This document shows positions 11,598 to 59,688 of a stretch of DNA of 64,000 nucleotides, piece after piece. The stretch is from an uncultured Candidatus Saccharibacteria bacterium (GTDB lineage Bacteria > Patescibacteriota > Minisyncoccia > GCA-002772825), in assembly GCA_964560655.1 (NCBI GenBank), contig CAZLLR010000001.1, positions 36,202-100,201 of the forward strand. Reading direction: 5' to 3'. Under the pieces are notes generated by a model, which did no database searches, was not told the origin of the DNA, and was given only the letters and a program-made list of their open reading frames with translations. The number at the start of each line of letters is the position of its first letter. Position 1 is the stretch's first letter. The translations under genes and the position numbers were made by a program.

Positions 11598-12512
11598 CTA
11601 CATCCAGCCTTTCTTTTTAAAGAAGCTGAACATAAATATAGTTGCAATAGCCATTATAGCCATTACCACCCAGAAGTCACCCTTTACCCCTACTATCGGC
11701 AAGTATCGAGTATTCATGCCAAAGATGGCTGCAATAAGAGATAGCGGAAAAGTGACAAAAGCCATGATAGTAAGAAACTTCATAACCTCATTCGTCTTTG
11801 TAGAAAGAAGTGAGTCGTTCGTCTCGCGGAGGTCTGTTAAAGTCTCTTTCTGTATTTCAAGCTGGCTAGCTACTTTAAAATATTCGCCGACCATATCAGA
11901 TAGATGATAAGAAAAATCTTTACCGAAGAAATTAACCCCGGCAACTTCAAAAGAGGAGAGGATCTCTTTGTGTGGACGCACTGCTTGATTAAAATTAATA
12001 AGATCCCTGTTTACTATAGATATACTTTTTACCATCTGCTTCTCCTTACCATTGAAAATATTATCTTCTATAAGCTCGATCTTCTCACCTATATGATCAA
12101 GTTGCCTTAGTGAGAACTCGTAAAGCTGGCGAAGTATATAGAAGACGAGGAAGCCGGCGTGTTCGCCGATATTACTCTTGTCTAAGATGGAGTTTACCTC
12201 AAACATTTTTGAGAACTCATGAAGAGGGTCGATAGTCTCATAGTGAGTAGTGATCAAGAAATTTTTCCCGATAATAAAATCAACTTCTCTCCCGTCTGAG
12301 CCTTGCGTCTTCTGACTATAGACAGGAAAGTGGAGTATGAGGTAGATGAGGTTGGGGTAGACGTCCACTTTCGGGCGAAGAGTCGGGCGCATGAGCTCGT
12401 CAGCAACAAGGATAGGGATAGAAAAATCTTTCATAATCTTCTCTATATCGTCTCTTGTCGGAGATTCAAGGTTTACCCAAATTAGCTTCTTGTGTTTATA
12501 AGTTGTCATCAT
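11598..12512 (-). CDS. corA: CorA-family Mg2+/Co2+ transporter
   Basis: GMN motif (IFGMNTRY) followed by two C-terminal TM helices. Confidence 0.8.
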   Translation of the reverse strand: MMTTYKHKKLIWVNLESPTRDDIEKIMKDFSIPILVADELMRPTLRPKVDVYPNLIYLILHFPVYSQKTQGSDGREVDFIIGKNFLITTHYETIDPLHEFSKMFEVNSILDKSNIGEHAGFLVFYILRQLYEFSLRQLDHIGEKIELIEDNIFNGKEKQMVKSISIVNRDLINFNQAVRPHKEILSSFEVAGVNFFGKDFSYHLSDMVGEYFKVASQLEIQKETLTDLRETNDSLLSTKTNEVMKFLTIMAFVTFPLSLIAAIFGMNTRYLPIVGVKGDFWVVMAIMAIATIFMFSFFKKKGWM

Positions 12513-23115: not shown

Positions 23116-23187
23116 TCCGGCGTAGCTCAGTGGTAGAGCAGTTGACTGTTAATCAATTGGTCGCAGGTTCGAATCCTGCCGCCGGAG
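23116..23187 (+). tRNA. tRNA-Asn (anticodon GUU)
   Basis: 72 nt. Acceptor TCCGGCG/CGCCGGA, D-arm GCTCAGTGGTAGAGC, anticodon loop CTGTTAA, T-loop TTCGAAT. U1-A72 as in E. coli tRNA-Asn. Confidence 0.8.
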
Positions 23188-23245
23188 CAGAATAGACACT
23201 CTTCAAAATTTTGTAATTTATAGTGAAAAAAGCTACAATTTATCT

Positions 23246-23869: not shown

Positions 23870-24070
23870 TTACTTCGGGTTCCATGGGAGTTTTTTCCAC
23901 TGTCCTCCGGGAATCCTGACTGTGGTGTGCCCATTATTGACCTCACCTTTCGGATCTATATTGAAGGAATCGTGGACGTCTCCTCCAATTGGTGATGAGC
24001 CTGCCGGCTGTATGCCAAAATTGGGCTTTAAGGGCTTGAAGCCTGAGTTTCCTCCATTCATGATAATCAC
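23870..24070 (-). CDS. 66-aa Gly/Pro-rich small protein P1 (MIIMNGGNSGFKPLKPNFGIQPAGSSPIGGDVHDSFNIDPKGEVNNGHTTVRIPGGQWKKLPWNPK)
   Basis: Minus strand. AGGAGGTG SD 7 nt before the ATG, sigma70 promoter (TTGACT-17-TATTCT) upstream, terminator downstream. Paralogous to the 26410 ORF. Confidence 0.55.
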   Translation of the reverse strand: MIIMNGGNSGFKPLKPNFGIQPAGSSPIGGDVHDSFNIDPKGEVNNGHTTVRIPGGQWKKLPWNPK

Positions 24071-24156: not shown

Positions 24157-24251
24157 TATATTTTTATATATTAAAAACTAACCAAATAGGTTCGAACATC
24201 GTCTAGTGATTTGACAAAATAGCACTTTAATGCTATCTTTTTATTAGATAA

Positions 24252-24281
24252 AAACTAAACTTTGTACATAAAAAAAGGAGG
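24252..24281 (+). promoter_or_regulatory. conserved 5' leader motif (AAACTAAACTTTGTACATAAAAAAAGGAGG), instance 1
   Basis: Member of a recurring element with consensus TAAACTYYGTACTTTAAAAAGGAGG placed immediately 5' of the start codon. Preceded by TTGACA-17-TATCTT. Confidence 0.5.
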
Positions 24282-24288
24282 TGTGATT

Positions 24289-24522
24289 ATGAAGCTATCA
24301 GAAAAACGAATAAGGGAGATCGCATTTCTTTACCTCAAGTGGAAACTTGAGAGGGAAGGATTTTCTCTGCAGAATTTTCAAGATAGGGTGACTTTTACAT
24401 GCGGTGCGATAGGCATACCAGAAGAAGAAGGTATGGCGTTCGCAAAAGAAATTCTTACGCGTTTAGAAAAAAGATCTGTCGATGATGCGTTATCAGAGGC
24501 TAAGCCTGTCGGATCTGCGTAA
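24289..24522 (+). CDS. 77-aa hypothetical protein (MKLSEKRIREIAFLYLKWKLEREGF...)
   Basis: ATG at 24289 preceded by the GGAGGTG SD. The ORF-track start at 24262 lies inside the leader motif. Confidence 0.55.
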   Translation: MKLSEKRIREIAFLYLKWKLEREGFSLQNFQDRVTFTCGAIGIPEEEGMAFAKEILTRLEKRSVDDALSEAKPVGSA

Positions 24523-24541
24523 ATGTAACACTCTTTTTTAA

Positions 24542-24567
24542 AGACCACACAAAACATCGTGTGGTCT
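24542..24567. terminator. hairpin AGACCACAC-aaaacatc-GTGTGGTCT (bidirectional)
   Basis: 9-bp stem with A-run before and T/C-run after. The ACCACRC/GYGTGGT stem type recurs at 26623 and 29779. Confidence 0.6.
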
Positions 24568-24576
24568 TTCTTCTTG

Positions 24577-25500
24577 CTATTGTAAGAGTAGTTGTGCTAA
24601 TGAATCAATGACCCCTGGGTTGATATTATATTTAGGAAAGGAACCAAAAGGATTCACGTCTATCACAATTGGTTCTTCTCCTGAGATTACATCTATACAT
24701 AGATACTCTAGATTCAAATTTTTACAAAGAGACTTAAATTTACTCTCATACTCTTTAAAAATATCTGTTTCTATTTTAACTAATCTCGCTGAGCTTTTAT
24801 CTAGAGGATCGATTTCTTCTCTTTTATAAGAGAATATTTTATCTCCTATAATAAAGATTCTGTATTCCTCTCCCTTTATCTTATTTTGTAAAAGACAAGT
24901 CCCGAATATATCTATATGTTTTTTTAAATCAATATTTCCTTCAATAATATGAGGTGGATAAATATAAGCTGTATCCCCGCTATCTTCTTCAAAAGATAAC
25001 ATTTCTTTTAATTGAGTTTCTGCCTCAGGTAAAGCTTGAGAGAAATAACAATTTCCAAGACTTTTAGAAATCTGTGTTTCTGAAAATTTTAAGTCCATAT
25101 TATTTTTTCTTAATACAAAAGAATTTGGTGTTTTAATTCCACATTCCCTTACTTTTTTGAGAGAATAAAGTCTATTTCGAGCAAAGTGTGCATCTTTGAT
25201 ATTATTTATACTAATATCAGTAAACAAAAGTCCGAGAGTTTTGAAGAATTCAGTATTTTCTCTTTTTTGGTAATCTTCCGTATGTGGGCTAATCAAATCA
25301 TAAGGGTATCTAATAAATGCTCGGGTAAAGGTTTTTATTGGATGTTTTTCTACTTTTTCTCCAATGTAAACAAATTTATCATCAACAGCCTTGATATCTT
25401 TATCTGAAAAAATAAGATCTTCTTTTTTTGATATTTTTCGGATAGATTTTTCTAAATCTCCTAAACTATTATATGAGCAAGCGAGTAATATTTTATTCAT
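24577..25500 (-). CDS. ATP-grasp ligase, RimK-like
   Basis: EYRIFIIGDKIFSYKRE matches RimK DIRCLVVGDEVV, and LEYLCIDVISGEEPIVIDVNPFGSF matches the RimK/MdnC C-terminal E-x-N Mg-binding motif. 307 aa. Confidence 0.65.
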   Translation of the reverse strand: MNKILLACSYNSLGDLEKSIRKISKKEDLIFSDKDIKAVDDKFVYIGEKVEKHPIKTFTRAFIRYPYDLISPHTEDYQKRENTEFFKTLGLLFTDISINNIKDAHFARNRLYSLKKVRECGIKTPNSFVLRKNNMDLKFSETQISKSLGNCYFSQALPEAETQLKEMLSFEEDSGDTAYIYPPHIIEGNIDLKKHIDIFGTCLLQNKIKGEEYRIFIIGDKIFSYKREEIDPLDKSSARLVKIETDIFKEYESKFKSLCKNLNLEYLCIDVISGEEPIVIDVNPFGSFPKYNINPGVIDSLAQLLLQ

Positions 25501-25513
25501 AGAAATTAAAATA

Positions 25514-25541
25514 AACAGGAGCGGATAACCGCTCCTGTTTA
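25514..25541 (-). terminator. perfect hairpin AAACAGGAGCGG-ttat-CCGCTCCTGTTT followed by a T-rich run on the minus strand, 13 nt upstream of the ATP-grasp ATG
   Basis: 12-bp stem, and the U-tract is present only on the minus strand. Positioned like an attenuator of a transcript reading into the ATP-grasp gene. Confidence 0.5.
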
Positions 25542-25699
25542 AATACTTAATCTTTCCAAATTTTATTTGCCATAATAAATATTATTAATTAATAATGGAC
25601 TAATTTAATGCTATCATAAAGTATTTTTTCTATCAACTAGGTCAAATAATTACCTTTTTTACCCAAAACTGGACATCAATTCTAAATCCTTCTTAACCT

Positions 25700-25900
25700 C
25701 CATCCAGTTCAAAGTTCTGAATGTATCCAGTAGACGGAGCCAAACAGAACAGCCCTCCAATTTTCGTCCGCGCCGAGCGTGGGGCGTGCGATGGGAGTGG
25801 AATTACCACGCACTCGGTGTGGAAGTGGTCGAGCTTTGTTCGAAATAAGTTCGGATTTCATCATATAGACGGAGTCTCGTAAAATAATCTCAAAATTAAA
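25700..25900. ncRNA. candidate structured RNA / GC-rich leader element (unassigned)
   Basis: Local GC-rich block in an AT-rich genome (CCGCGCCGAGCGTGGGGCGTGCGATGGGAGTGG...). Internal complementary segments CCGAGTGCGTGG / CCACGCTCGG. The only overlapping ORF (25709..25939, minus) starts with TTG, has no SD, and has atypical composition. Confidence 0.25.
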
Positions 25901-26022
25901 ATATTCTATATCAGAGGTTACATATTCATCTATGTTCAAGCCACTTGTCTTTTTTCATATATATGATTTAATGAAAATAGATATATTGGTCTTTAAAAAT
26001 CGTAAAGAAGGAGGTGAGTAAG

Positions 26023-26364
26023 ATGGCAGATTTTAAAGTGAAACTTATACAAATTCCCATTATTCCAAGTTTGAGTCCCGGAACACCGGAGTTTAGAGAA
26101 GATAGACGCGCTCATATGTCCACATTAATGTCTATCTATGAGATGAGTAAGAAGGAAAGGACTTGCCCTAGATGCGGTGAAAATAAAAGTCCAACTAAAC
26201 CCCAATGTTTCTCTTGTCTTTCAACAAGTGTTCTAAGCCTCCATTACCTTTCCGAACAAACAAAGGAATGTAAATTTCACGGAATTAATTTCTGTCCAAA
26301 ATGCGACAAATTTATGCCCTCATTTATGAAAAAATGCCCCAGCTGCTTTTATAAAAGGAGTTGA
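26023..26364 (+). CDS. 113-aa Cys-rich small protein with four CxxC pairs, N-terminus MADF
   Basis: SD AAGGAGGTG. CPRC...CFSC and CPKC...CPSC. The first 30 or so nt including the SD are near-identical to the 26410 ORF. Confidence 0.55.
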   Translation: MADFKVKLIQIPIIPSLSPGTPEFREDRRAHMSTLMSIYEMSKKERTCPRCGENKSPTKPQCFSCLSTSVLSLHYLSEQTKECKFHGINFCPKCDKFMPSFMKKCPSCFYKRS

Positions 26365-26409
26365 ACTCTAAACATGCCTATACTGTATATAAAAAGGAGG
26401 TGAGTAGAA

Positions 26410-26606
26410 TGGCAGATTTTAGAGATAGCTTCCCTAAGGTAGACCCTCGCATGAAGATCAGATCTGATCTCGATAACCGTAAACACGGACCGCATCATGA
26501 TGTGTTCGTCCCTGTTTCTGGAGGAACTGATCAAACAAGGGTTACCCCCGATGGAGAGGTGATCGGCGGAACTACTAACATAGGAAAAGCCAAAAAGGAC
26601 TGGTAA
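26410..26606 (+). CDS. 65-aa small protein P2 (MADFRDSFPKVDPRMKIRSDLDNRKHGPHHDVFVPVSGGTDQTRVTPDGEVIGGTTNIGKAKKDW)
   Basis: SD AAGGAGGTG. N-terminus is duplicated from the 26023 ORF. The C-terminal PDGEVxGGTT...KK block is paralogous to P1 (23870..24070). Confidence 0.55.
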
Positions 26607-26617
26607 ATACCAATTCT

Positions 26618-26652
26618 AAAAAGGCCACATAAAAGATTGTGTGGCCTTTTTT
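26618..26652 (+). terminator. rho-independent terminator GGCCACA-taaaagatt-TGTGGCC + TTTTTT
   Basis: Stem plus T-run after the 26410 ORF. Confidence 0.65.
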
Positions 26653-26743
26653 ACCCCAAACAGGTTCAAATATCGTCACCACAAGAGTACTTCCATTTTC
26701 TAATTCGCAATCTCAAAGAAAATTAGGTCGCCAGTAGGCGGAG

Positions 26744-26772
26744 TTGACCTTCTTAAGTATATATTATATAGT
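26744..26772 (+). promoter_or_regulatory. promoter TTGACC-17-TATAGT
   Basis: Same architecture as the promoters at 29225 and 31909. Upstream flank carries CCAGTAGGCGGAG. Confidence 0.45.
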
Positions 26773-26783
26773 ATTTTTAGAAT

Positions 26784-26810
26784 TAAACTAAACTTTGTAC
26801 TTTAAAGGGG
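26784..26810 (+). promoter_or_regulatory. conserved 5' leader motif, instance 2 (TAAACTAAACTTTGTACTTTAAAGGGG)
   Basis: See the 24252 entry. Confidence 0.5.
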
Positions 26811-26817
26811 TGAGATT

Positions 26818-27177
26818 ATGACAATGGAAGAAGACACAGTAGATCGTAGTCCGAGAAGAATAGATCGAACAAGAATTTTTAAAGGTAACTTCGCTCGAAA
26901 AATACTTAAAAGATCAAGATATTCTCCCATAGAAGTTGAAAACTTCATGATAAAGAATAAAGTTTACTGGAATGGAGATCTCGAACTTAAGGAAAACGGT
27001 GTCCATAGTCATTGCTACTACACAGAGATGTTCTGGAGTATCATGAAGAGAATACCTACTGGCGTCCATGAAATATCTGAAATAGAATCATTCAAGCCAA
27101 GGAGACCAATTGTTTTACTACTTAGATTCTTCGGTTCTTATCTGTATTTAACAAAGCTAAAGAAATCTTTATCTTAA
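26818..27177 (+). CDS. 119-aa hypothetical protein
   Basis: ORF with the conserved leader/SD. No recognisable domain. Confidence 0.5.
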   Translation: MTMEEDTVDRSPRRIDRTRIFKGNFARKILKRSRYSPIEVENFMIKNKVYWNGDLELKENGVHSHCYYTEMFWSIMKRIPTGVHEISEIESFKPRRPIVLLLRFFGSYLYLTKLKKSLS

Positions 27178-27196
27178 CCCATAAGGAGATAGACAA

Positions 27197-27379
27197 ATGA
27201 CTCAGAAGGAAGGAGCACTTATAGATAAAGACGTCAAGCACCCAAGCCACGATACACGATCCTCAGATGCGTCAACTTATGACGAGGTATGCAAAAAATG
27301 CGGAGCAACAGATAAAGTCCCTGGTGGTTGGGGACGGCTTGCCCTACTTTGTCCTAAAAACTCTAAAGCTATAGCTTAA
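27197..27379 (+). CDS. 60-aa small protein with CxxC...C (zinc-ribbon-like)
   Basis: SD AAGGAG 8 nt upstream, and a terminator after it. Confidence 0.5.
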   Translation: MTQKEGALIDKDVKHPSHDTRSSDASTYDEVCKKCGATDKVPGGWGRLALLCPKNSKAIA

Positions 27380-27395
27380 GTCAAGGTGGTTGATC

Positions 27396-27428
27396 GCTCA
27401 CAAGACATATTCTTGTGAGCATTTTTTT
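27396..27428 (+). terminator. rho-independent terminator GCTCACAAG...CTTGTGAGC + TTTTTTT
   Basis: 9-bp stem plus T7. Confidence 0.65.
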
Positions 27429-27733
27429 ATAAAGATAATTTTTTCTACCCAAATAAATAAGCCCGAGTATTGTCACCATAAGAGGACTTCTATCTTTATA
27501 CTCCTTCTAATCACTAAGGATTAGGTCACCCAGTAAACAGAGTCAGTTAAAATAGTCTTATTTTTTAGGCTATTTTATTTTATCTCATATGAGATTTTGA
27601 CGGGCGTTAGAGGTTATAATATTTGTGTTATACTTTTTTATATGAAGAAGAAAACTCAAATATTATTTATACATGGTGGTATGACCTTTAAGAAACAGAA
27701 AGATTATTTACATCATTTAAAAACTAAAAAAAT

Positions 27734-29224
27734 ATGGACGATAATATAACGATACTTACAAAAACAGATTTCAAAGAATACCTTTTGTGCAATAAGTGTC
27801 TTTGGCTTAAAAAGAAATGCCCGGAGGAATATATTCAAGGTGACTTTTCTCTTTTCCTTAAAAAACTTATAAAAGACGGTTATGAAGTTGAATCATATGT
27901 ACAAAAACTTTTTCCTGATGGTGTCTTTCTCTCAGGCGACAAAGAAGCATTGATTTCGAGAACAAAAGATTTACTTACAGGAGATAAACCAATCTTCCAA
28001 GCAACCTTTGAAACAGATAGTGGCCTTTTTGCTAAAGTCGATATTCTTGATTTTAATAAAAAGACAAATAAGTGGGACTTGTACGAAGTAAAAGCAAGTT
28101 CAGAAATAAAGACGGATATAAAACACAACCACGTTAAAGACGTTATATTTCAGACAATCGTTGCAGAAGACTCAGGAGTTGATATTGGTGATAGTTACAT
28201 TATCTATATAAATAGGGAATATAGGCGCAGTGGTGACATAGACCTTGATAAGTTATTTATAGTTGAGAATATTGTCGAAAAAGTAGTTGAGCAAAAGGAG
28301 TTAGTACGAGGAGAGATACAATGTGCGTTAGACATGCTTAAGAAAGATGATGTGTCTCTCGATGGATGTGACTGTTTATACAAAAGCCATGGCCAACGGT
28401 GCGATTCTTTTTTTAAGTTTAACCCAAATGTACCCGAGTACTCTATTCACCACATTGTCACAGGAAATAAGCTAAAGACACTTTTAGAAGAAGGACTGTT
28501 AGATATAAAAGATATACCAGAAGATTTTGAACTTACTGATATTCAAAGAGATAAGGTTTCCCTGCAAAAAATAGGTAAACCTCTTATAGATAAAATTGCA
28601 ATAAAACAAACCTTGTCAGAGTTAGTGTTTCCCATATACTTTCTAGACTATGAAACATATGGATCTCCCATACCTCTTCTTGATGGCTATAAGACGAATC
28701 AGCAAGTCGTATTTCAAGTATCATTACATGTGTTAAGAGAAGATGGAACATTGGAACACTTTGAGTATTTAGCAGATAAGCTAGATAGTGCCACGAGAGG
28801 GCTTGTAGATATGCTAAAGGCTAATATAGGCGATGTGGGGAGCGTCGTTGTATGGTATGAGAGCTTTGAGAAGGGGAGAAATGCAGAATTAGCCGAATTA
28901 CACCCAGAAGATAAAGAATTTATGGAAGATTTAAACAATAGAGTGTTTGATCTTATGAAAGTTTTTAAGAAAGATTACTTGCATCCAGATTTCCAAGGTA
29001 GCGCCTCAATAAAGAAAGTTCTTCCTGTTCTTTTGCCAGAGCTGTCATATAAAAATTTGGACATACAAAACGGTACGATGGCGCTTAGTGAATGGGAGAA
29101 GATAATTAAAGGAAAGTTGAGTAAAGAAGAGGCTGAAAAAATAAAGCAAAATTTACTAAAATATTGTGAGCTCGACACACTTGCTATGGTAGAGATATAT
29201 AAGAAGTTAGTTATGTTAGCATAA
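27734..29224 (+). CDS. DUF2779-type protein: N-terminal Cas4/RecB-like PD-(D/E)xK nuclease fold plus C-terminal RNase-H-like region
   Basis: D...DLYEVK nuclease motif (VDILDF...WDLYEVKAS), Cys cluster (CNKC...C, CDCLYKSHGQRC), C-terminal FLDYET acidic motif. About 500 aa as in the DUF2779 family. Family assignment is from memory. Confidence 0.6.
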   Translation: MDDNITILTKTDFKEYLLCNKCLWLKKKCPEEYIQGDFSLFLKKLIKDGYEVESYVQKLFPDGVFLSGDKEALISRTKDLLTGDKPIFQATFETDSGLFAKVDILDFNKKTNKWDLYEVKASSEIKTDIKHNHVKDVIFQTIVAEDSGVDIGDSYIIYINREYRRSGDIDLDKLFIVENIVEKVVEQKELVRGEIQCALDMLKKDDVSLDGCDCLYKSHGQRCDSFFKFNPNVPEYSIHHIVTGNKLKTLLEEGLLDIKDIPEDFELTDIQRDKVSLQKIGKPLIDKIAIKQTLSELVFPIYFLDYETYGSPIPLLDGYKTNQQVVFQVSLHVLREDGTLEHFEYLADKLDSATRGLVDMLKANIGDVGSVVVWYESFEKGRNAELAELHPEDKEFMEDLNNRVFDLMKVFKKDYLHPDFQGSASIKKVLPVLLPELSYKNLDIQNGTMALSEWEKIIKGKLSKEEAEKIKQNLLKYCELDTLAMVEIYKKLVMLA

Positions 29225-29253
29225 TTGACTTTTTTAAGTATCTCTTGTAAGAT
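29225..29253 (+). promoter_or_regulatory. promoter TTGACT-17-TAAGAT
   Basis: Near-identical 29-mer to the promoter at 31909 (TTGACTTTTYTRARTATMTCTTGTAARAT). Confidence 0.5.
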
Positions 29254-29270
29254 ATATTTAGATAGAAAGA

Positions 29271-29303
29271 TAAACTCCGTACTTTATAACTTAAAAAGGA
29301 GGA
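29271..29303 (+). promoter_or_regulatory. conserved 5' leader motif, instance 3 (TAAACTCCGTACTTTATAACTTAAAAAGGAGG)
   Basis: See the 24252 entry. Confidence 0.5.
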
Positions 29304-29310
29304 AATCAAA

Positions 29311-29466
29311 ATGAGTGACACAGATCATATTTGCTTAACAGATAAGATACTAGAGAAATTTTTCTCACACAATGCCTCAAGAGAAGACACGGATCGGATA
29401 ACAAAAGATATTGAGGATTGTGTTTTCTGTAAAAGAAAATACATTAAAAGAGGACTTAAGAAGTGA
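29311..29466 (+). CDS. 51-aa small protein (MSDTDHICLTDKILEKFFSHNASREDTDRITKDIEDCVFCKRKYIKRGLKK)
   Basis: ORF read by eye (under 60 aa, so absent from the track). SD GGAGG 8 nt upstream. TGA stop. Confidence 0.45.
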   Translation: MSDTDHICLTDKILEKFFSHNASREDTDRITKDIEDCVFCKRKYIKRGLKK

Positions 29467-29480
29467 TGTGATCCTTAACA

Positions 29481-29505
29481 TAAATTCTGTACTCTAAAAA
29501 GGAGG
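29481..29505 (+). promoter_or_regulatory. conserved 5' leader motif, instance 4 (TAAATTCTGTACTCTAAAAAGGAGG)
   Basis: See the 24252 entry. No separate promoter here, so probably co-transcribed with the 29311 ORF. Confidence 0.45.
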
Positions 29506-29512
29506 TTCCATA

Positions 29513-29755
29513 ATGAACAATGATTCTAAAATTTTCTTGCTTGGTGTTGTTTGTAGCTTATTGCAGATAGTCGGACTTGCTTTAATTATAGCAAGTCCAT
29601 ATTTACCACAATCCATTTCCGTTATTATTGGAATTAGTGGATTTGCTGCGATAGTTAAACTTTTTCTCCCAAGCAAAGCGGATTTTGAAGGAAAAATCCT
29701 TCGACCAGCTGCAGCATTAGCAGGATTTGGGATAATAATTATCTCTTTAATTTAA
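29513..29755 (+). CDS. 80-aa membrane protein (3 TM)
   Basis: SD GGAGG. Hydrophobic throughout. Confidence 0.55.
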   Translation: MNNDSKIFLLGVVCSLLQIVGLALIIASPYLPQSISVIIGISGFAAIVKLFLPSKADFEGKILRPAAALAGFGIIIISLI

Positions 29756-29778
29756 TATCATAATAAAATATTTTAAAA

Positions 29779-29810
29779 ACCACGCAAAATATCGCGTGGT
29801 TTTCTCTTTT
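29779..29810 (+). terminator. rho-independent terminator ACCACGC-aaaatatc-GCGTGGT + TTTCTCTTTTT
   Basis: Same stem family as the hairpin at 24542. Confidence 0.65.
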
Positions 29811-29859
29811 TATATCATCTATATTTTATTATTCGTGTAGTGAATTAGAAGACAAGAAG

Positions 29860-29892
29860 CAACGGCTACCGAGTTTTTTTCGGTAGCCGTTG
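29860..29892. terminator. hairpin CAACGGCTACCGA-gttttttt-CGGTAGCCGTTG
   Basis: 13-bp perfect stem directly downstream of the msrB-domain stop codon (minus strand). AACGGCT stem family. Confidence 0.6.
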
Positions 29893-29932
29893 TAAATTAG
29901 GCTATCTAGTAGTAGACAAAACTAATTAGAGA

Positions 29933-30466
29933 TCAGAGAAATAAGTAAAGATACTCTTCATAACCTTCACTCTCCATCCCTTCCCTAGGTATAAATCTAA
30001 GGGCTGCGGAATTCATACAATATCTAACCTTATCATTTTCAATCGGTCCATCTAGGATAATATGCCCTAAGTGAGAATCGGCATATTTACTACGGATCTC
30101 CGTATGAGGGATGATCAATTTATAATCTTTTCTTTCTCTAACAAAATCTTTATCTATCGGCTTGAGAAAGCTGGGCCACCCTGTTCCTGAGTCAAATTTA
30201 TCTACTGAAGAAAATAATGGCTCCCCAGAGACTATATCTACATATATACCATCTTCATGATTGTCCCAATATTCATTTTGAAAGGCCGTCTCCGTACTTT
30301 CTTTCTGAGTAACTTTGTACTGTAGGGGAGTAAGAGTACTTCTTAATACTTCATCGATCGGTTTTTGAAAATTTTCCCATTCATTAGTATTAGATACAGA
30401 TTTTCCAATCTTTTCAAATAGATTGTCGTATGTGCCCTCACCCCAAATTGACTCTATAAACTTATC
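29933..30466 (-). CDS. msrB: peptide-methionine (R)-S-oxide reductase MsrB domain, in frame with upstream msrA and lacking its own start codon
   Basis: [10 protein letters not shown]...[11 protein letters not shown] catalytic block and GWPSF. Zinc-less type (no CxxC pairs). 177 codons beginning immediately after the msrA TGA. No ATG/GTG/TTG before the domain core. Confidence 0.6.
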
Positions 30467-31102
30467 TCACCCCGAACCCTCTCTGTAATACTTATATCTA
30501 ATAGGATTCTTCTTATAATAATTTTGATGGTATTCTTCAGCTAACCAAAATGCTCCAGCCTTCTCAATACTCGTTGATATAGGTTTATCAAAGATTTTTC
30601 TTTCTTCAACTTGTTTTATTACTCCTTCTGCAATAGATTTCTCTTCATCTGTCTGGTAATAGACTGCTGAAGTATATTGATATCCACGATCGTAGAATGA
30701 CCCTTCATTATCCGTCGGGTCAGTATGCTTTAATAGATACAAAACAAGATCATGGTAATTAGTCTTAGTAGGATCATAGGTTACCTTAATCATCTCTCTG
30801 TGTCCGGTGTCGCCGGAAGAGACTTGATTATAACTCGGCTCTTCTACACCACCCCCCATATACCCAGATACAACATCTATAACTTCAGGTAATTTTTCAT
30901 AATCACTTTCAGTACACCAGAAGCAACCACCAGCAAAGTAAGCAACAGCTTCTCCCTTATTTGTAGTCGAAGTATCGATATTACTAGGCGCTGTTTTGCC
31001 TTTATACCAGCCGTAACCCCAAATACTTACCACTAGTATCCCTATAAGGACGATTATAAAAAATAGTTTAATCATATGTCTTGTCATTATAACACTACAC
31101 AC
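30467..31102 (-). CDS. msrA: peptide-methionine (S)-S-oxide reductase MsrA, membrane-anchored
   Basis: GGCFWC active-site motif. N-terminal TM helix (IKLFFIIVLIGILVVSIWGY). Stop is a TGA at plus-coordinates 30467-30469. Confidence 0.8.
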   Translation of the reverse strand: MCSVIMTRHMIKLFFIIVLIGILVVSIWGYGWYKGKTAPSNIDTSTTNKGEAVAYFAGGCFWCTESDYEKLPEVIDVVSGYMGGGVEEPSYNQVSSGDTGHREMIKVTYDPTKTNYHDLVLYLLKHTDPTDNEGSFYDRGYQYTSAVYYQTDEEKSIAEGVIKQVEERKIFDKPISTSIEKAGAFWLAEEYHQNYYKKNPIRYKYYREGSG

Positions 31103-31310
31103 TTATGATAAATAGATGACATGGAAAGAGCTAATCAAGATAACAAGCCTGCCAGTAGCAGTCACTTCTCTTTATTGCCTCGGTCCGCTTATCTTTGTAC
31201 TTCTAGCTTTGCCAGATGACGGAGACAGATGAGCCGTTCGCCTGTAAAGATTTCTATCTCAACATATGCCGGATATTTGAGAGTACTCGATCCTATGATA
31301 TACTTTTTAT

Positions 31311-31823
31311 ATGAAAAAAGGATTCATAAATGTATTGTTTATAATAGTAATTATAGTAATTGCCGGTGGTATTGGATATTTTATTTCTAATACTAACCGA
31401 GATATTGATAGTACTGAAGGAGTCAATGATATAACAACATCTTTAGATAAGACTATAGACCTAAGTAATAAGGGATTAAAAAGTATCCCTTATTATATAT
31501 TCGATCAGACAAACATAGAAGAACTCAATGTCTCTAATAATTCTTTGACAGGGGCTATACAAGCAGAGATAGGACACTTATCTAAACTAAAAATACTCAA
31601 TGCCAAAAATAATTTAATGACGGGAGTGCCAGCTGAGATCGGACAGCTACAAAACTTAGAAATCCTCGATCTCTCTAACAATCAACTTACGGGACTACCT
31701 AATGAACTAGGAAGTCTTAGAAAACTTAAAATATTAAACCTCTCTGGCAACCAATACTCAAACCAAGACCTTAAAGAGATCCGCGCTAAACTCCCAAAAA
31801 CAGTAAATATAATCCTAAATTAA
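31311..31823 (+). CDS. leucine-rich-repeat protein with N-terminal TM anchor
   Basis: At least five 23-24-residue LRRs of LxxLxxLxLxxNxLTGxxPxExGxL type (plant-specific-like). Confidence 0.7.
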   Translation: MKKGFINVLFIIVIIVIAGGIGYFISNTNRDIDSTEGVNDITTSLDKTIDLSNKGLKSIPYYIFDQTNIEELNVSNNSLTGAIQAEIGHLSKLKILNAKNNLMTGVPAEIGQLQNLEILDLSNNQLTGLPNELGSLRKLKILNLSGNQYSNQDLKEIRAKLPKTVNIILN

Positions 31824-31908
31824 AAAGACTTTAATACTGCCTACTGGCGACCTAATTTTAGACGACTAAAGAGAGTAGAAGCACGAAGGTGCCCTTGTAG
31901 TGATGATA

Positions 31909-31937
31909 TTGACTTTTCTGAATATATCTTGTAAAAT
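31909..31937 (+). promoter_or_regulatory. promoter TTGACT-17-TAAAAT
   Basis: Paralogous to the promoter at 29225. Confidence 0.5.
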
Positions 31938-31952
31938 ATGTTTAGAAAAAAT

Positions 31953-31977
31953 AAACTTCGTACTTTAAAAAAGGAGC
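31953..31977 (+). promoter_or_regulatory. conserved 5' leader motif, instance 5 (TAAACTTCGTACTTTAAAAAAGGAG)
   Basis: See the 24252 entry. Confidence 0.5.
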
Positions 31978-31984
31978 TATAACT

Positions 31985-32932
31985 ATGAGACAGAAAGTTA
32001 TTCTATTCGCTGGACCAGGAAGAGTTGCTGAGCCTACAATAGATAAATTAATACCATACGGGTGGAAGGCTGTAGTCAGTTATAGAGAAGGGCATAGAAA
32101 AGAAAGTGGCTCTCAAAAGACTGTAGAAACTTTAATCAATAAATATGGTACTGATGTTGTCTATGGTATCCCGGCAGAAATATCAGCGTACCCTGAAGCA
32201 CATAGATTCATAACAGAGGCCATGGCACACTATCCAGATATTGAAGAAATTGCCTTAATCAACGTAGCTTCTCAATATCCACCTAATCCATTTTTTGATA
32301 GAGCAACCAAAAGTGAGCTAATCAAAAAAGACTGGCGATACTTTTTATCCAACTTCTGCGTGATGCAGAACGTGACAAGGGTATTTCTAAGGCAGCTTGA
32401 AGGGAAAAATATAAAAGCAAATATCATAAGCTTCGGAGACAGTAGGGCTTATGAATATTTTTACCCTGACATCATACATCCTTTCTATTTCTCTAAAGAT
32501 AGAAAGGATAAAGATATCATCAACCTTTCTTTAAAAGAAGCTAAGGTGTTAGGATTAGATCTCCTAAGAAAATTGGGGGTAATTGGAAGGGATTGTAACC
32601 CTTATATGCTCTCAAAACTCTTGATAATGTATGCTACAAGAGAGCTTGCCCTTAAGCACGCTGGAGGTAACACTCAGATAAATGTCCTTGCTCCTGGAAT
32701 AATGGGCACATCTCCAAATGATAAACCCGGAGAAGCTGAGGCCTTTGCAAGAAAAACTACAATCTTACAGAGGATAGGAGGCTTCACCTCCGCTGCTGAT
32801 AAAATCGCCCACTTAGTAAGTGACAACTCTTATACTACTGGGGAGATAATCACAATAGATGGAGGTAAGCACCTGATATGGCTTGAAGAGCAAGAAATGA
32901 AGCGAAATAGAAGAAACTTAAATTTAGCTTGA
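31985..32932 (+). CDS. SDR-family NAD(P)-dependent oxidoreductase (enoyl-reductase-like)
   Basis: N-terminal Rossmann-type FAGPGRVAEP and C-terminal APGIMGTSP...ITGEIITIDGG. Confidence 0.65.
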   Translation: MRQKVILFAGPGRVAEPTIDKLIPYGWKAVVSYREGHRKESGSQKTVETLINKYGTDVVYGIPAEISAYPEAHRFITEAMAHYPDIEEIALINVASQYPPNPFFDRATKSELIKKDWRYFLSNFCVMQNVTRVFLRQLEGKNIKANIISFGDSRAYEYFYPDIIHPFYFSKDRKDKDIINLSLKEAKVLGLDLLRKLGVIGRDCNPYMLSKLLIMYATRELALKHAGGNTQINVLAPGIMGTSPNDKPGEAEAFARKTTILQRIGGFTSAADKIAHLVSDNSYTTGEIITIDGGKHLIWLEEQEMKRNRRNLNLA

Positions 32933-33018: not shown

Positions 33019-33180
33019 ATGAGAGAAAGACCACTTATATGGGCAGGACTTTTTATAGGTTCTTTCATCGGTAGTTATATACCGATGTTTTGGGGAGGAA
33101 GTCTCTTATCTATAACATCTGTGCTGTTAAGCGCCATCGGCGCTTCTATCGGGGTGTGGATAGGCTACCAGCTTACGTAA
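33019..33180 (+). CDS. possible 53-aa Gly-zipper membrane peptide
   Basis: ORF read by eye, TATAAT 9 nt upstream (leaderless?). Overlaps the 3' end of the convergent MTase gene by 8 nt. Weak call. Confidence 0.25.
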   Translation: MRERPLIWAGLFIGSFIGSYIPMFWGGSLLSITSVLLSAIGASIGVWIGYQLT

Positions 33181-34394: not shown

Positions 34395-34510
34395 AAATGA
34401 TTATTAGATCTTATCGCCACGAACGGTATTGACTTTATTAAGATTTCTGGTAATATACAGAAAGAATAAAAAATAGATTTGAACTTTAAAAAATGAAAGG
34501 GGGGATAAAG

Positions 34511-34966
34511 ATGAGTGCATTACTGAAGCGACTTTTACGGAGAAAGAAGCATGGAGACACTACCTATACGGCAAAATGTGGACACAATACGCATTTAATA
34601 GCCAAAGTGACGGCATTTGGTGAAACAGTAGAGATGACATTAGAGCCGAACGAAGACGGCTCACTTAACTACTGTATTAAGTGCCTTGAGAAGATGACCC
34701 TTCAGTGCCCTTTATGTGAGGGGCCAATATTTATTGATACTCCAATTGTCTTTTACCCTAAAAAAGAAGGAATCGCTCCGTTTATTGGGTGTGCTACATT
34801 TTATTGCACTACCAAAAACCCAAGTAAAGATGCAGATCGAAGATTCCGATGGATACCTGGCAAAAAAGGGAAAGGTAAGGCTTCAATCGATGTCAATATA
34901 GAAATGATAGAAAGAAAAAAACGATGTGTAGCAATGTGCACATCAACAAGATGTACGCCCTTATAA
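34511..34966 (+). CDS. Cys-rich hypothetical protein (multiple CxxC pairs)
   Basis: SD AAAGGGGGG 6 nt before the ATG at 34511. Terminator downstream. Confidence 0.5.
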   Translation: MSALLKRLLRRKKHGDTTYTAKCGHNTHLIAKVTAFGETVEMTLEPNEDGSLNYCIKCLEKMTLQCPLCEGPIFIDTPIVFYPKKEGIAPFIGCATFYCTTKNPSKDADRRFRWIPGKKGKGKASIDVNIEMIERKKRCVAMCTSTRCTPL

Positions 34967-46225: not shown

Positions 46226-47098
46226 ATGAGAAAAGTTATAGTTCGTGATCTTAATTCTTATTTTTCTTATATTAATAGTTTTCCTCTCCTCAGTAGAAGA
46301 GAAGAACTAGAACTTGCTTACAAAATAAAAAAAGGTGGAGTATTAAGTGTCGCCGCATTTGAAAAGATGGTAAATTCGAATCTTAGACTAGTTGTCAATA
46401 TAGCTAAAAGATTTACAAGAGTTAGTTATCGCCTAAGCTTTAGTGATTTAATTCAGGAAGGGAATGTAGGGCTAATTTTAGCCATCAATAAATTCAAGGG
46501 AGAAAAAGGTTGTAGGTTATCTTCTTATGCTACTTACTGGATACGGCAAACTATAAGAAGTGCCCTAAGAAGAGAGTCAAATGAACTTCGCCTTCCTACT
46601 CACACTAGTGTAGATATAAGTAATTTTAGAAAAACTTCCAAGGAGCTTTCTACCAAACTAGGGCGCGAGCCATCTCTAGAAGAAATATCGGATAAGATAA
46701 AACTCACCAGGACTAAAGGGGGAGGATTAAAAAAAGTAGAAATGCTAGAAGCAATAAGCAAAAGGCATTTTTATTCTCTTAATGCTCCGGCTGTAGGGAC
46801 AGATACAAACTTAATAGAGTTTATACCGAATCCTTCTAGTATAGATCCGATAAAACCAATCGAGAAAAAAACTAGAAGAAATAGACTAAGAAAGATCTTA
46901 GGTAGTGGACTTCTTACAGAAAAAGAAGTGACTATCATCAAACTTCGCTTCGGGTTTACAGGAGATCAAGATGGTCAAACTCTTGAAAAGATAGGTGACG
47001 AATTTGGTGTTACCAGAGAAAGAATACGTCAAATAATAGAAACATCTCTTTTTAAATTAAAGGAAAAGTACTCTCAAGAGCTCAAATATTTATACTAG
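46226..47098 (+). CDS. sigma-70 family RNA polymerase sigma factor (second, shorter paralog lacking region 1.1)
   Basis: Region 2 (LIQEGNVGLILAINKF, YATYWIRQTIRSAL), region 3, and region 4 ([17 protein letters not shown]). SD AAGGAGGG. Confidence 0.75.
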   Translation: MRKVIVRDLNSYFSYINSFPLLSRREELELAYKIKKGGVLSVAAFEKMVNSNLRLVVNIAKRFTRVSYRLSFSDLIQEGNVGLILAINKFKGEKGCRLSSYATYWIRQTIRSALRRESNELRLPTHTSVDISNFRKTSKELSTKLGREPSLEEISDKIKLTRTKGGGLKKVEMLEAISKRHFYSLNAPAVGTDTNLIEFIPNPSSIDPIKPIEKKTRRNRLRKILGSGLLTEKEVTIIKLRFGFTGDQDGQTLEKIGDEFGVTRERIRQIIETSLFKLKEKYSQELKYLY

Positions 47099-55337: not shown

Positions 55338-55838
55338 ATGAAAAAACGTTTTTTAAAAGCCTATAATGACTATTCCCCAAGTATCTTGAGGCATATCTAC
55401 TTTAGGGTAAATAATCAAGAGCTTGCTGAAGATTTAACCCAAGAAACCTTTTTTAAGACTTGGCGCTATATCTCAAAGAAAGACACTGAAATAGCTAATT
55501 TAAAGACCTTTTTATATAAGGTGGCCAATAATCTTATAATTGATTATTATCGACAAAAAAATAACAAAATGACAGTGGCAATCGACGAAGTTAGCGAAGA
55601 GTTCATCGCTACTGAATCCCAACAAGAGAAAGAAGCTGATCAGGCATTTGATAAAAAATTAGTAGAAAAATTTTTACTTAAACTTAAAGACGACCAAAAG
55701 CAGGTCCTCCTTTATCGCTATATTGATGATCTTAGTATATTAGAGATAAGTAAGTTAACTGGTAAGACAAAAGAAAATATAAGGGTCATAATCCACAGGG
55801 GATTAAAAGCGCTCAAGGAGCAAATGAAATATGATTAA
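55338..55838 (+). CDS. ECF-type RNA polymerase sigma factor
   Basis: Sigma-70 region 2 (QETFFKTW, YRQKNN) and region 4 (LSILEISKLTGKTKENIRVIIHRGLKALK). Confidence 0.8.
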   Translation: MKKRFLKAYNDYSPSILRHIYFRVNNQELAEDLTQETFFKTWRYISKKDTEIANLKTFLYKVANNLIIDYYRQKNNKMTVAIDEVSEEFIATESQQEKEADQAFDKKLVEKFLLKLKDDQKQVLLYRYIDDLSILEISKLTGKTKENIRVIIHRGLKALKEQMKYD

Positions 55839-56814
55839 AAATATAAAAATAATTAAAGAACTAAAAAGGCTCAAGAAGAAGCCTGTTAATCAAATTTTCT
55901 TAAACTCACTAAAAATGAGGCTTGAAGTGCTAGTAAAAACTAATCCTGTTGACGAAAGAGTGCGAAAACCTGTTCACCATACACTAAGAAGTATATTTAA
56001 ACTCCGAGTTGTTAAGGTGTCTTTTGCTGTATTTATGGTCACTCTACTTTTAGGCGCTAGTGCTGCGAGAGCTTCACAGGGAAGCTTGCCTGGGGAGAAA
56101 CTATATTCTATAAAAATATTTACTGAAGAAGTACGTTCTAAAACTACCTTAAAAAATAAAGACAGAGCAAGATTAAGTATGAGTTTTGCCGCCAAGCGTA
56201 TAAAAGAGATAGAAGAAATGTTAGAAGAAACTGAGATTGAGTCTGATAAGTTAGAAATAGCATTAAATCAATTTGAGAAAAATCTTACAAAAGCTACAAA
56301 TATCATGAGGGAAGAAAAAATGATAATTGATGATATAGGGGTTGAAACAGCAGAGATACACCAGGATATCAAAGAGAAAAAAGAGGTCCTAGAAAGAACT
56401 ATAAGGGAAAAGAAAGTACGTATGGAAGACAAAGAAAAAGAGATCGAAGAAAAGATAAAGCTAGCCACCCCTGAAGAAAAAGAAAATAATGAAACACTGA
56501 TAGACGAACTTATAGGGTTAAAAATAAATAAGGAGATTTTAGAGTTTAAAGAAAAAGACGTTCAAAAGATATTAGAAGATGCAGAAAAGACTGAGGAGAT
56601 AAAAGAGGCTGGAAGCAAAAATAGTACTCTCAAAGAACAAAGAGATGCGCAGTTAAAAATTGAAAGGAGGGAGGTATATAACAATAGAGAAATAATCAGG
56701 AGTAGAGAAGAAGCTGGAAAGGAAATAAGGAAAAAGGTATTAGAGAAGATTGAAAGTGACAGAAAAGAAAAAGCTGAAGAGGAAAAGAATTTTAAAGATA
56801 AGGATAAAGATTAA
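55831..56814 (+). CDS. putative anti-sigma factor (single TM, DUF5667-like coiled-coil ectodomain)
   Basis: Overlaps the ECF sigma gene by 8 nt. TM segment followed by a long K/E-rich coiled coil. Confidence 0.45.
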   Translation: MIKNIKIIKELKRLKKKPVNQIFLNSLKMRLEVLVKTNPVDERVRKPVHHTLRSIFKLRVVKVSFAVFMVTLLLGASAARASQGSLPGEKLYSIKIFTEEVRSKTTLKNKDRARLSMSFAAKRIKEIEEMLEETEIESDKLEIALNQFEKNLTKATNIMREEKMIIDDIGVETAEIHQDIKEKKEVLERTIREKKVRMEDKEKEIEEKIKLATPEEKENNETLIDELIGLKINKEILEFKEKDVQKILEDAEKTEEIKEAGSKNSTLKEQRDAQLKIERREVYNNREIIRSREEAGKEIRKKVLEKIESDRKEKAEEEKNFKDKDKD

Positions 56815-58512: not shown

Positions 58513-59688
58513 TTATTTCTTTGTCTGCTTTAAAACAACAAATTCTTTCTTTTCCCTAAAAGATAGAATTTTGTTCTGTAGTTTACTTACAAGAAGAGGA
58601 AGTAATTTGCTTAATTTTTTTTCATCTGGGCTTAGTATCTCTTCCCATTTATTCTCTGGCACTAAGACCTCTTTTACTTTATCCATATCAAAAGAGAATC
58701 TCTCTTGGACATTCTTCGTGATGAAACCACGCGAGCTAAAGACACGAGCCACCTTGCTCGACTCCATAAAAGTCAGTATATCCTCACGAAGCTCTTTTAA
58801 TCTTTTTTTATTTTTTTCTTCAACCTCTTTTATCTCGAAAAATTCAGTTATTACTTTAGCGACATCTTCTTCACTTTTTGTTTCTGGTTTGTCTTTCTTG
58901 TATTCATGCGACCACATAGGACAAATCTTCTTATACCCACAATAATCACATAAAGCTGAAGGAGTAGGGGAGAAACTATTTTTCTCTTCTTTTTCCTCCA
59001 CTTCCTTTATGGTGGCTAATATAAAATCTCGCGTCTTATTTATATCCTCTTGGGGATTTTCTTTTTCGGCAGTTATCTTTTCATTATGCTTAAGGAAGTA
59101 TAACGATAACTTTATTTTTGAAGCGGGGAGTCGAGGCCACCTGTCTTGGAGAGCCATATGGTAGAGAGAGAGCTGTAAATTATCTTTAAGCATCTCCGCA
59201 CTAGGCATCTTCTTGCCTGTCTTATAGTCTATGATCTCATACTCTTCACTTTCCGGATCTTTATCTATCCTGTCTATTATACCGACGATAGTATGATCTT
59301 CTTGAGTTTCTTCGTCACGCAAAGTTACACTGAAACGACTTTCTAGTTCCACAGCGTTAAACTTCCAAGGTTGATTCTTCTTGTAGAAATTTTTTATAAG
59401 TTTTACTCCTTCTTCAAAATAAAGTTTTTCAAAATCTTCTTTTTTTAGAGGGTTCGGCCACTCTATAGACTCAGACTTCTTATTCCATTTATCAGTAAAG
59501 AAGTCTATAACTTCATCAAGGGTAGGGTATAAGGGGCCACGCTCAAACATAAATTTAAGCGCCGAATGAACTAAAGAGCCAAAAACAGCCTCAATCCGCT
59601 TAGGAGCTGGAATCTTATCAAGTTTCTGATATTTATACTTAAGTGGACACGTCCTATACGTATCTAAGGCAGAATAAGATGTTCTCAT
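58513..59688 (-). CDS. PD-(D/E)xK nuclease family protein (Cas4/AddB-nuclease-like) with C-terminal Cys cluster
   Basis: YRTCPLKYKY N-terminal motif, IIDRID...EIIDYKTGK nuclease core, and C-terminal CDYCGYKKICPMW. Confidence 0.6.
   Translation of the reverse strand: MRTSYSALDTYRTCPLKYKYQKLDKIPAPKRIEAVFGSLVHSALKFMFERGPLYPTLDEVIDFFTDKWNKKSESIEWPNPLKKEDFEKLYFEEGVKLIKNFYKKNQPWKFNAVELESRFSVTLRDEETQEDHTIVGIIDRIDKDPESEEYEIIDYKTGKKMPSAEMLKDNLQLSLYHMALQDRWPRLPASKIKLSLYFLKHNEKITAEKENPQEDINKTRDFILATIKEVEEKEEKNSFSPTPSALCDYCGYKKICPMWSHEYKKDKPETKSEEDVAKVITEFFEIKEVEEKNKKRLKELREDILTFMESSKVARVFSSRGFITKNVQERFSFDMDKVKEVLVPENKWEEILSPDEKKLSKLLPLLVSKLQNKILSFREKKEFVVLKQTKK

Follow-up and report, generated by a model that had tools for sequence, protein, structure and literature searches.

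A 12-nt motif joined to strong Shine-Dalgarno sequences recurs ahead of unrelated genes in a hypervariable Patescibacteria island

Six diverged expression modules, five of them bearing an intact 12-nt core motif, TAAAYTNNGTAC (TAAAYTYYGTAC), lie within one genomic island of an uncultured Candidatus Saccharibacteria bacterium (assembly GCA_964560655.1, contig CAZLLR010000001.1, positions 36,202 to 100,201). We analysed this 64-kb stretch as a whole and refer to it as the window. In each intact copy the motif precedes a strong Shine-Dalgarno (SD) sequence and an ATG. The motif is a real, selected and strictly local cis element. It is probably a local expression signal, with a putatively translational function.

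Exact matches to the core occur five times in the window (24256, 26789, 29271, 29481 and 31952), all on the plus strand. Dinucleotide shuffles yielded a mean of 0.42 matches, and none of 100 shuffles reached five. The motif family is sharp-edged, because allowing one mismatch added just three sites, all unrelated and fewer than chance expectation. A 26-nt profile built from the five copies recovered them at E values of 1.7e-4 to 1e-2, and its next best match in the window or in loci of related genomes had an E value of 2.9. These results bear out the proposal of a first-pass annotation that a shared element precedes the start codons of five genes, and they redraw its outline. The 25-nt consensus as first written matches, within three mismatches, only the copies at 29481 and 31952; what is conserved is the 12-nt core together with the SD. 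Every core copy is followed by a strong GGAGG-type SD and then an ATG, at distances that vary (6-15 nt from GTAC to GGAGG and 29-40 nt from motif start to ATG) where the same spacing had been claimed throughout. A sixth, degenerate module at 34474 had been overlooked. Two sites listed as looser copies (25996 and 26383) do carry an SD, and otherwise hold just fragments of the element; the 3' part of the second is the generic ATATAAAGGAGG context of the window's few other SD-led genes. All of these features are on the plus strand:

24211 to 24239, plus strand: M1 promoter, TTGACA-17-TATCTT with a TG upstream of the -10 (10/12 match).
24256 to 24267, plus strand: M1 core, TAAACTTTGTAC; SD GGAGG at 24277-24281; ATG at 24289 (g1, 77 aa).
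26744 to 26772, plus strand: M2 promoter, TTGACC-17-TATAGT.
26789 to 26800, plus strand: M2 core, TAAACTTTGTAC; SD GGGGTGAG at 26807-26814; ATG at 26818 (g5, 119 aa, orphan).
29225 to 29253, plus strand: M3 promoter, TTGACT-17-TAAGAT, abutting the stop codon of the DUF2779 gene.
29271 to 29282, plus strand: M3 core, TAAACTCCGTAC; SD GGAGG at 29298-29302; ATG at 29311 (g8, 51 aa).
29481 to 29492, plus strand: M4 core, TAAATTCTGTAC; SD GGAGG at 29501-29505; ATG at 29513 (g9, 80 aa, membrane protein).
31909 to 31937, plus strand: M5 promoter, TTGACT-17-TAAAAT.
31952 to 31963, plus strand: M5 core, TAAACTTCGTAC; SD GGAG at 31973-31976; ATG at 31985 (SDR-family reductase, 315 aa).
34429 to 34513, plus strand: M6, degenerate module; promoter TTGACT-16-TAATAT at 34429-34456.
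34474 to 34484, plus strand: decayed motif of M6, TAGATTTGAAC; SD GGGGGG at 34499-34504; ATG at 34511 (151-aa zinc-ribbon-rich protein).
25996 to 26025, plus strand: loose copy upstream of g3, AAAAATCGTAAAGAAGGAGG; only TCGTA and the SD in common with the core copies.
26383 to 26411, plus strand: loose copy upstream of g4, TATACTGTATATAAAAAGGAGG; fragments TATACT..GTAT plus the SD.

Four of the core copies (24256, 26789, 29271 and 31952) lie downstream of TTGACx-17-TAnnnT elements, which are sigma-70-type pairs scoring 9-10 of 12. The canonical -35/-10 first reported for three copies is there, and is found at a fourth as well, with the -10 hexamer ending 14-17 nt before the motif in each of these modules. 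When the transcription start site (TSS) is predicted from the -10, the motif would begin at about +9 to +12 of the transcript. This geometry makes it most likely that the motif is transcribed rather than being the promoter, as had been suggested, and both its transcription and its action at the RNA or translation level are what we infer from the sequence. Alignment of the six upstream regions revealed homology from the -35 to the ATG, promoter spacer included; M2, M3, M5 and M6 also share a TTTAGA box where the TSS is predicted. Whole modules are 41-66% identical in pairwise comparisons, and the best local stretch (M3 versus M5) reaches 82% identity over 44 nt. Within the window this type of promoter is confined to the island, and the genes that the modules drive exhibit no paralogy in an all-against-all BLASTP comparison of the island proteins.

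The copy at 29481 (M4) differs in its setting. It is intercistronic, lying in the 46-nt gap between g8 and g9 and starting 15 nt after the g8 stop codon; there is no promoter-like site on the plus strand between 29254 and 29480 and no terminator upstream. M4 has in common with the other modules only the stretch from motif to SD, and nothing upstream of the motif.

Conservation within the modules is concentrated in the core. Ten of its 12 columns are invariant in the four promoter-bearing modules M1, M2, M3 and M5 (nine of 12 across all five copies), compared with three of six in the -10 hexamer and eight of 29 in the spacer and post -10 columns (binomial P ~1e-4 for core versus spacer and post -10 columns, post hoc). 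The three variable core positions exhibit C/T variation only. Such invariance in modules that are otherwise so diverged is not explained by recent duplication. The core contains the hexamer TAAAYT and is asymmetric, with only its TAAA/TTTA ends inverted. Since the core outlasts the divergence of the modules, and M4 shares nothing upstream of it, these alignments indicate that the 12-mer is a discrete selected element, tied to the SD rather than to the promoter.

The modules stand apart from the rest of the window in how their genes appear to be translated. The RpoD homologues found by searching are named Parcubacteria/Paceibacteria, members of the candidate phyla radiation (CPR), and the island begins directly after dnaG-rpoD-tRNA-Asn, with the tRNA at 23116-23188. 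An SD core precedes nine of 18 genes inside the island versus five of 41 outside, so the SD-led genes of the island form a distinct translational class in this genome. The motif itself is present at none of the 41 genes outside, and it is therefore not simply the -10-to-SD consensus of this genome, an outcome that had been named as a possible refutation. A further 14 of those 41 genes have TAnnnT 4-10 nt before the start codon, a leaderless-type arrangement, and three clear SD-led genes outside the island (1345, 2201 and 46226) share ATATAAAGGAGG and lack the 12-mer. Island genes with leaderless-type starts also lack it. More broadly, most window genes are without an SD, and in many of them a TATAAT-like hexamer lies 5-8 nt ahead of the ATG (for example 11598-12512 on the minus strand, 38801, 54565, 55338, 58513-59688 on the minus strand, and 33019), a placement that suggests leaderless mRNAs; two relatives (L035 and L038) have similar SD-less starts with a hexamer before the ATG. 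One of the few SD-led genes outside the island (46226-47098) encodes a 290-aa RpoS/RpoD-like sigma factor, present besides rpoD. At 55338-56814 the window also encodes an extracytoplasmic function (ECF) sigma factor, and the adjoining DUF5667 protein may be an anti-sigma factor.

The island consists of small, mostly unannotatable genes, together with genes for an ATP-grasp protein, a DUF2779 nuclease, an apparently disrupted msrA-msrB, a leucine-rich repeat protein, an SDR reductase and a methyltransferase. It is hypervariable, because genomes with RpoD 87-91% identical carry wholly different genes at the same position: HTH, RadC, AIPR, MutH-like and DNA methylase genes in L035, and small hypothetical proteins, a holin-like protein, DKNYY and TspO in L038. 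PHROGs returned nothing for ten island proteins, and PADLOC detected only a Cas4-like nuclease domain, in the DUF2779 protein. The AlphaFold2 (AF2) model of g1 shows a small bundle of helices and had no significant counterpart in the PDB, and thus provides no evidence for g1 as a regulator.

As far as can be seen, the motif is private to this island within what was searched. It was not found in the close relatives with 87-91% identical RpoD (L035, L038 and L039). We scanned sequence collections with the degenerate pattern TAAAYTYYGTACWYWAWA-N(0-10)-AAGGAG, which matches four of the five window copies. It gave 10 single matches in the genome collection, from unrelated taxa that include Neobacillus, Clostridia, Bacteroides, Oscillospiraceae, Psychromonas and Omnitrophota, none of them Patescibacteria; 18 single matches in metagenome contigs; and four in viral contigs. 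A second pattern, TAAACTYYGTACTTTAWA, without the SD part, produced 21 single matches in viral contigs, and in none of the 21 did an SD and ATG follow the motif. These matches are consistent with chance, and in none of these collections did the motif occur in a multi-copy context. A blastn search of M5 against phage records returned only short AT-rich matches (E >= 0.06).

Homologues of the genes behind the modules are few, and every upstream region inspected among them carries another leader. The SDR gene (31985-32932) has only two homologues among 5.8 billion proteins, at 50% and 42% identity; the closer one (L040), the sole one inspected upstream, has no such leader. The 42% homologue is in a metagenome-assembled genome of a Pacearchaeota (a DPANN archaeon), where it directly follows GTP cyclohydrolase I (L041-L043), an arrangement that suggests a pterin-related reductase exchanged between CPR and DPANN. 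Promoters and SD-led leaders also precede the homologues of g1 (44% and 41% identity), with sequences unlike those of the modules, and g5 has no homologue among the 5.8 billion proteins. The 44% homologue of g1 is on a short metagenomic contig (L069: GCA_006243105.1, VAPL010857115.1, 1-2239), where a neighbouring leader has only TTTTGTAC in common with those described here. By eye, L069 also encodes homologues of the lysine-rich peptide, a zinc-ribbon protein and the 53-aa membrane protein (window 33019-33180), and another Patescibacteria lineage may therefore share some of the island's set of small genes.

Our tentative preference, among several readings, is that the motif is a linear, single-stranded mRNA extension of the ribosome-binding site (RBS), serving as a translational enhancer or operator. 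The island holds six diverged expression modules, each composed of a sigma-70-type promoter, an A/U-rich leader of ~40 nt, a very strong SD and an ATG, and the motif is the best-conserved part of modules that drive unrelated, mostly orphan small genes. It would act on the mRNA as an upstream translation-initiation element, read either by the 30S subunit (as an enhancer or standby site) or by a putative RNA-binding protein (as a translational operator), and the outcome would be a common translational setting for the island's leadered genes; the coordinated control first suggested for them is conjectural. An RNA element fits best because the motif is linked to the SD even without a promoter, keeps a fixed sense orientation, lies in an unstructured A/U-rich leader, and has a conserved core whose variation is restricted to pyrimidines.

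Several observations weigh against this reading. No binding factor or cognate regulator for the motif was identified, and a complementary small RNA, one of the partners first suggested for the element, found no candidate either: the 64-kb window contains no complement of at least 11 of the 12 bases. The SD-led second cistron g6 is without the motif, and the SD-led genes at 1345, 2201 and 46226 do without it too, which argues that it is not needed for SD-dependent initiation as such. The likeness of the leaders to a phage T7 enhancer, described below, is within chance for four of five. No second genome with the motif emerged from the relatives, homologues and collections searched, and hence there is no comparative support. 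Finally, TAAAYT is also a good -10-like hexamer, making a role at the DNA level possible.

Such a DNA-level role is unlikely overall, and it deserves the most attention among the alternatives. The motif would be an element of the initially transcribed region, either because TAAAYT holds sigma and causes a promoter-proximal pause, with the following YG as the elemental pause, or because the 12-mer is the operator of a repressor that acts as a roadblock. Positions T1, A2 and T6 of the hexamer are invariant, and these are the key positions of a -10 element. In four modules (five with M6) the non-template strand carries the element 14-17 nt beyond the true -10, and the two further sigma-family proteins encoded in the window are in keeping with this idea. 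Good evidence exists that -10-like sequences within transcribed DNA cause sigma-dependent pausing (PMC9191641, PMC5001585, PMC7876045), and the motif resembles these sigma-70 pause elements in having TAnnnT, with A2 and T6 on the non-template strand, followed by YG. However, the pause-inducing -10-like region of E. coli sits around the TSS, with pauses at +16 to +20 (PMC7876045), whereas the predicted start of the hexamer here is about +9 to +12, a greater distance from the TSS than in the E. coli class. The copy at 29481, moreover, is promoterless and intercistronic, ~220 nt into its operon, and so has no nearby delivery of sigma. An operator, for its part, is at odds with the asymmetry of the motif, since most operators are symmetric, and with the island proteins, among which no DNA-binding regulator was recognised.

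Passive inheritance would account for the modules differently: one promoter-leader module was duplicated or recombined in front of newly acquired genes, a known phenomenon termed promoter propagation (PMC3488235), and the copies are similar by descent or gene conversion. The similarity does extend beyond the functional boxes, with the promoter spacers of M2, M3 and M5 reaching 70-82% identity over 44 nt; the genes that follow the modules are not homologous to one another; and in other genomes the inspected homologues of the SDR gene and of g1 have different leaders. Yet the core is 10/12 invariant in modules that have diverged to 41-66% identity and whose -10 hexamer is only 3/6 invariant, the copy at 29481 retains nothing except motif and SD, and the modules fall under the threshold used to define mobile promoters (>=80% identity over 50-100 nt; PMC3488235). 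Promoter propagation explains the family of modules and not the core outlasting its flanks; as an account of the motif itself we consider inheritance alone doubtful.

A structured regulatory RNA, or a hairpin in which CUYY of the motif pairs with GGAG of the SD to gate translation, is improbable. All five leaders permit a 4-bp CUYY:GGAG (or AAAG) pairing if G-U pairs are counted, and several minimum free energy (MFE) folds contain it, most strongly in M3 (CUCC:GGAG, -6.8 kcal/mol); the variable positions of the core are also restricted to pyrimidines. Against this, all six leaders fold no better than shuffles (MFE -1.5 to -6.8 kcal/mol; z +0.92 to -0.91), and Rfam returned no match at any motif copy, either at the gathering threshold or at E values up to 5. 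This pairing is the sole one common to the leaders; it is weak, does not exceed expectation, and exhibits one-sided C/U changes without compensatory pairs. The SD is invariant, so that no compensatory change could be scored, and we estimate that about half of such leaders would contain a YUYY tetramer by chance. The structure and covariation analysis that the first-pass annotation had proposed thus returned no RNA structure and no usable covariation. Together, the missing Rfam match and the unremarkable folds indicate that the element is a linear motif in an unstructured A/U-rich leader.

The spacing of the modules raises the question of gene capture. The promoter-bearing modules at 24256, 26789, 29271, 31952 and 34474 are separated by intervals of 2533, 2482, 2681 and 2522 nt (coefficient of variation 0.03; P ~6.5e-5 versus uniform placement of interior points, post hoc). 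One long-shot interpretation is that each of them stands at the head of a serially acquired ~2.5-kb cassette, within a capture array that is linked to tRNA-Asn and has no integrase, and in which the 12-mer and SD would be an adaptor for the translation of foreign or orphan genes by a ribosome tuned to leaderless mRNAs. We consider it more improbable still that the motif is itself a recombination junction or cassette boundary of a non-integron array. Modules that front unrelated genes every 2.48-2.68 kb, an island that abuts a tRNA and is wholly different in relatives with ~90% identical RpoD, and a second repeat family between terminators and promoters would all suit such an array. The motif, however, lies inside the transcription unit, between promoter and SD, and not at unit ends; it has neither inverted copies nor dyad symmetry; no integrase or recombinase was found in any island protein or in most of the larger open reading frames (ORFs) of the window that were scanned; and an array containing the motif was found in no other genome or virus searched.

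The remaining candidates were rejected from the sequence itself: an ECF-sigma promoter (AAC and CGT are separated by only 2-3 nt), a Bacteroidetes-type -7 box, an upstream ORF (M3 and M5 have no start codon), the end of an insertion sequence or miniature inverted-repeat transposable element (no inverted copies), a dif/Xer site (no 11-bp arms), and a separate promoter with TAAAYT as its -10 (no -35 and no TG).

Other repeats punctuate the island. A second island-specific repeat of ~95 nt (TTTTTTACCCMAAA ... ATTAGGTCGCCAGTAGRCGGAG) lies between a terminator and the next promoter, with copies at 25650-25740, 26645-26743 and 27440-27545 on the plus strand and at 31835-31905 on the minus strand, possibly another at 31125-31225 on the plus strand, and possibly a truncated copy at 24185-24205. 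A 21-nt stretch at 26719-26739 is identical to the reverse strand of 31839-31859. The 5' part of the repeat resembles the T-loop and 3' end of a tRNA (AGGTTCGAAyATCGTCACCA). These repeats may be att-like scars of serial integration at tRNA-Asn, although no integrase was found in the proteins scanned; they have no Rfam match and were not found in viral contigs. One copy contains a GC-rich insert of ~126 nt (25740-25865), flanked by a 9-nt direct repeat, TAGACGGAG (25731-25739 and 25866-25874), which looks like a small insertion with target-site duplication. The terminator hairpins after the small genes (24540-24569, 26620-26649 and 29776-29803) are alike (AAAGRCCACRYAAAAnATyGYGTGGYCTTT), with compensatory changes in their stems, and L069 has terminators in the same style (AAACCCACCAAAA..TTTTGGTGGGTTT) at 274-307, 651-683 and 911-943.

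Two further loci in the island merit description. On the minus strand at 29933-31102, msrA (PMSR) and msrB (SelR) parts occupy different ORFs, and of SelR just the C-terminal 41 residues are in frame; to judge from this layout, the locus is probably a disrupted fused msrAB gene. The ATP-grasp protein (24577-25500, minus strand) exhibits a weak likeness to maturases of ribosomally synthesized and post-translationally modified peptides (E 3e-5 to 1e-3 against graspetide and microviridin MvdD/MvdC models, far short of their cut-offs). Nearby ORFs of 65-66 aa (26409-26606 on the plus strand and 23870-24070 on the minus strand) have, by eye, a common ...P(D/K)GEV..G.TT... segment, and could be precursor peptides.

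With six copies, and no support from comparison with other genomes, the motif is a cis element specific to a strain or species, and its general significance is therefore limited. If it is a translational enhancer or operator, it would offer a first handle on leadered, SD-dependent gene expression in a mostly leaderless CPR bacterium, and would also be relevant to the way in which orphan genes newly gained by a hypervariable island come to be expressed. Were the motif instead the adaptor of a capture array, it would represent a new cassette expression platform with its own dedicated translational operator.

Several known systems can be compared. Unlike integron arrays, the units here carry their own promoters and no IntI-type tyrosine recombinase was found in the proteins scanned. 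The attC sites of integrons lie between promoterless cassettes and are imperfect palindromes built around RYYYAAC / GTTRRRY cores. The motif, with all copies on the plus strand, is without an inverted partner, and the intergenic 'E' repeat is not palindromic by alignment inspection. The targets of phage T4 RegA and the GGA sites of CsrA are translational operators common to several mRNAs, and the motif would resemble them as a linear RNA motif at or beside the ribosome-binding sites of several unrelated genes, an arrangement that would coordinate their translation. The motif differs in that no cognate protein has been identified for it, and to our knowledge its sequence is unrelated to either consensus.

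The RBS of T7 gene 10 includes an A/U-rich translational enhancer, 'Enh/epsilon', upstream of the SD (PMC8748333). Like it, the motif is a short, unstructured, A/U-rich sequence a few nucleotides before a strong SD, and the T7 leader has ACTTTAA..AAGGAG and TTTGT blocks in common with the leaders here. Local alignments to the T7 leader gave P values of 0.46, 0.06, 0.24, 0.13 and 0.004 for M1-M5; the scores are within the top 1% and not above the window background, and are convincing versus shuffles for M5 only. Conservation here is highest in TAAAYTYYGTAC, which is a different sequence from the epsilon 9-mer. On this comparison, the resemblance is weak, and one of analogy, not homology.

A further parallel is provided by putative mobile promoters (PMPs), described under promoter propagation by Matus-Garcia et al. 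2012 (PMC3488235). As with PMPs, homologous stretches of ~85 nt, comprising promoter and 5' untranslated region (UTR) and ending a few nucleotides before the start codon, precede non-homologous coding sequences in one genome. In contrast to PMPs, the modules here are 41-66% identical rather than at least 80%, with a best local identity of 82% over just 44 nt; they are clustered in one 10-kb island at a regular 2.5-kb spacing; and one of them (M4) lost, or never had, its promoter half. In general terms the element belongs to a kind already known, promoter/5'-UTR modules shared by several genes, here with an SD-adjacent motif.

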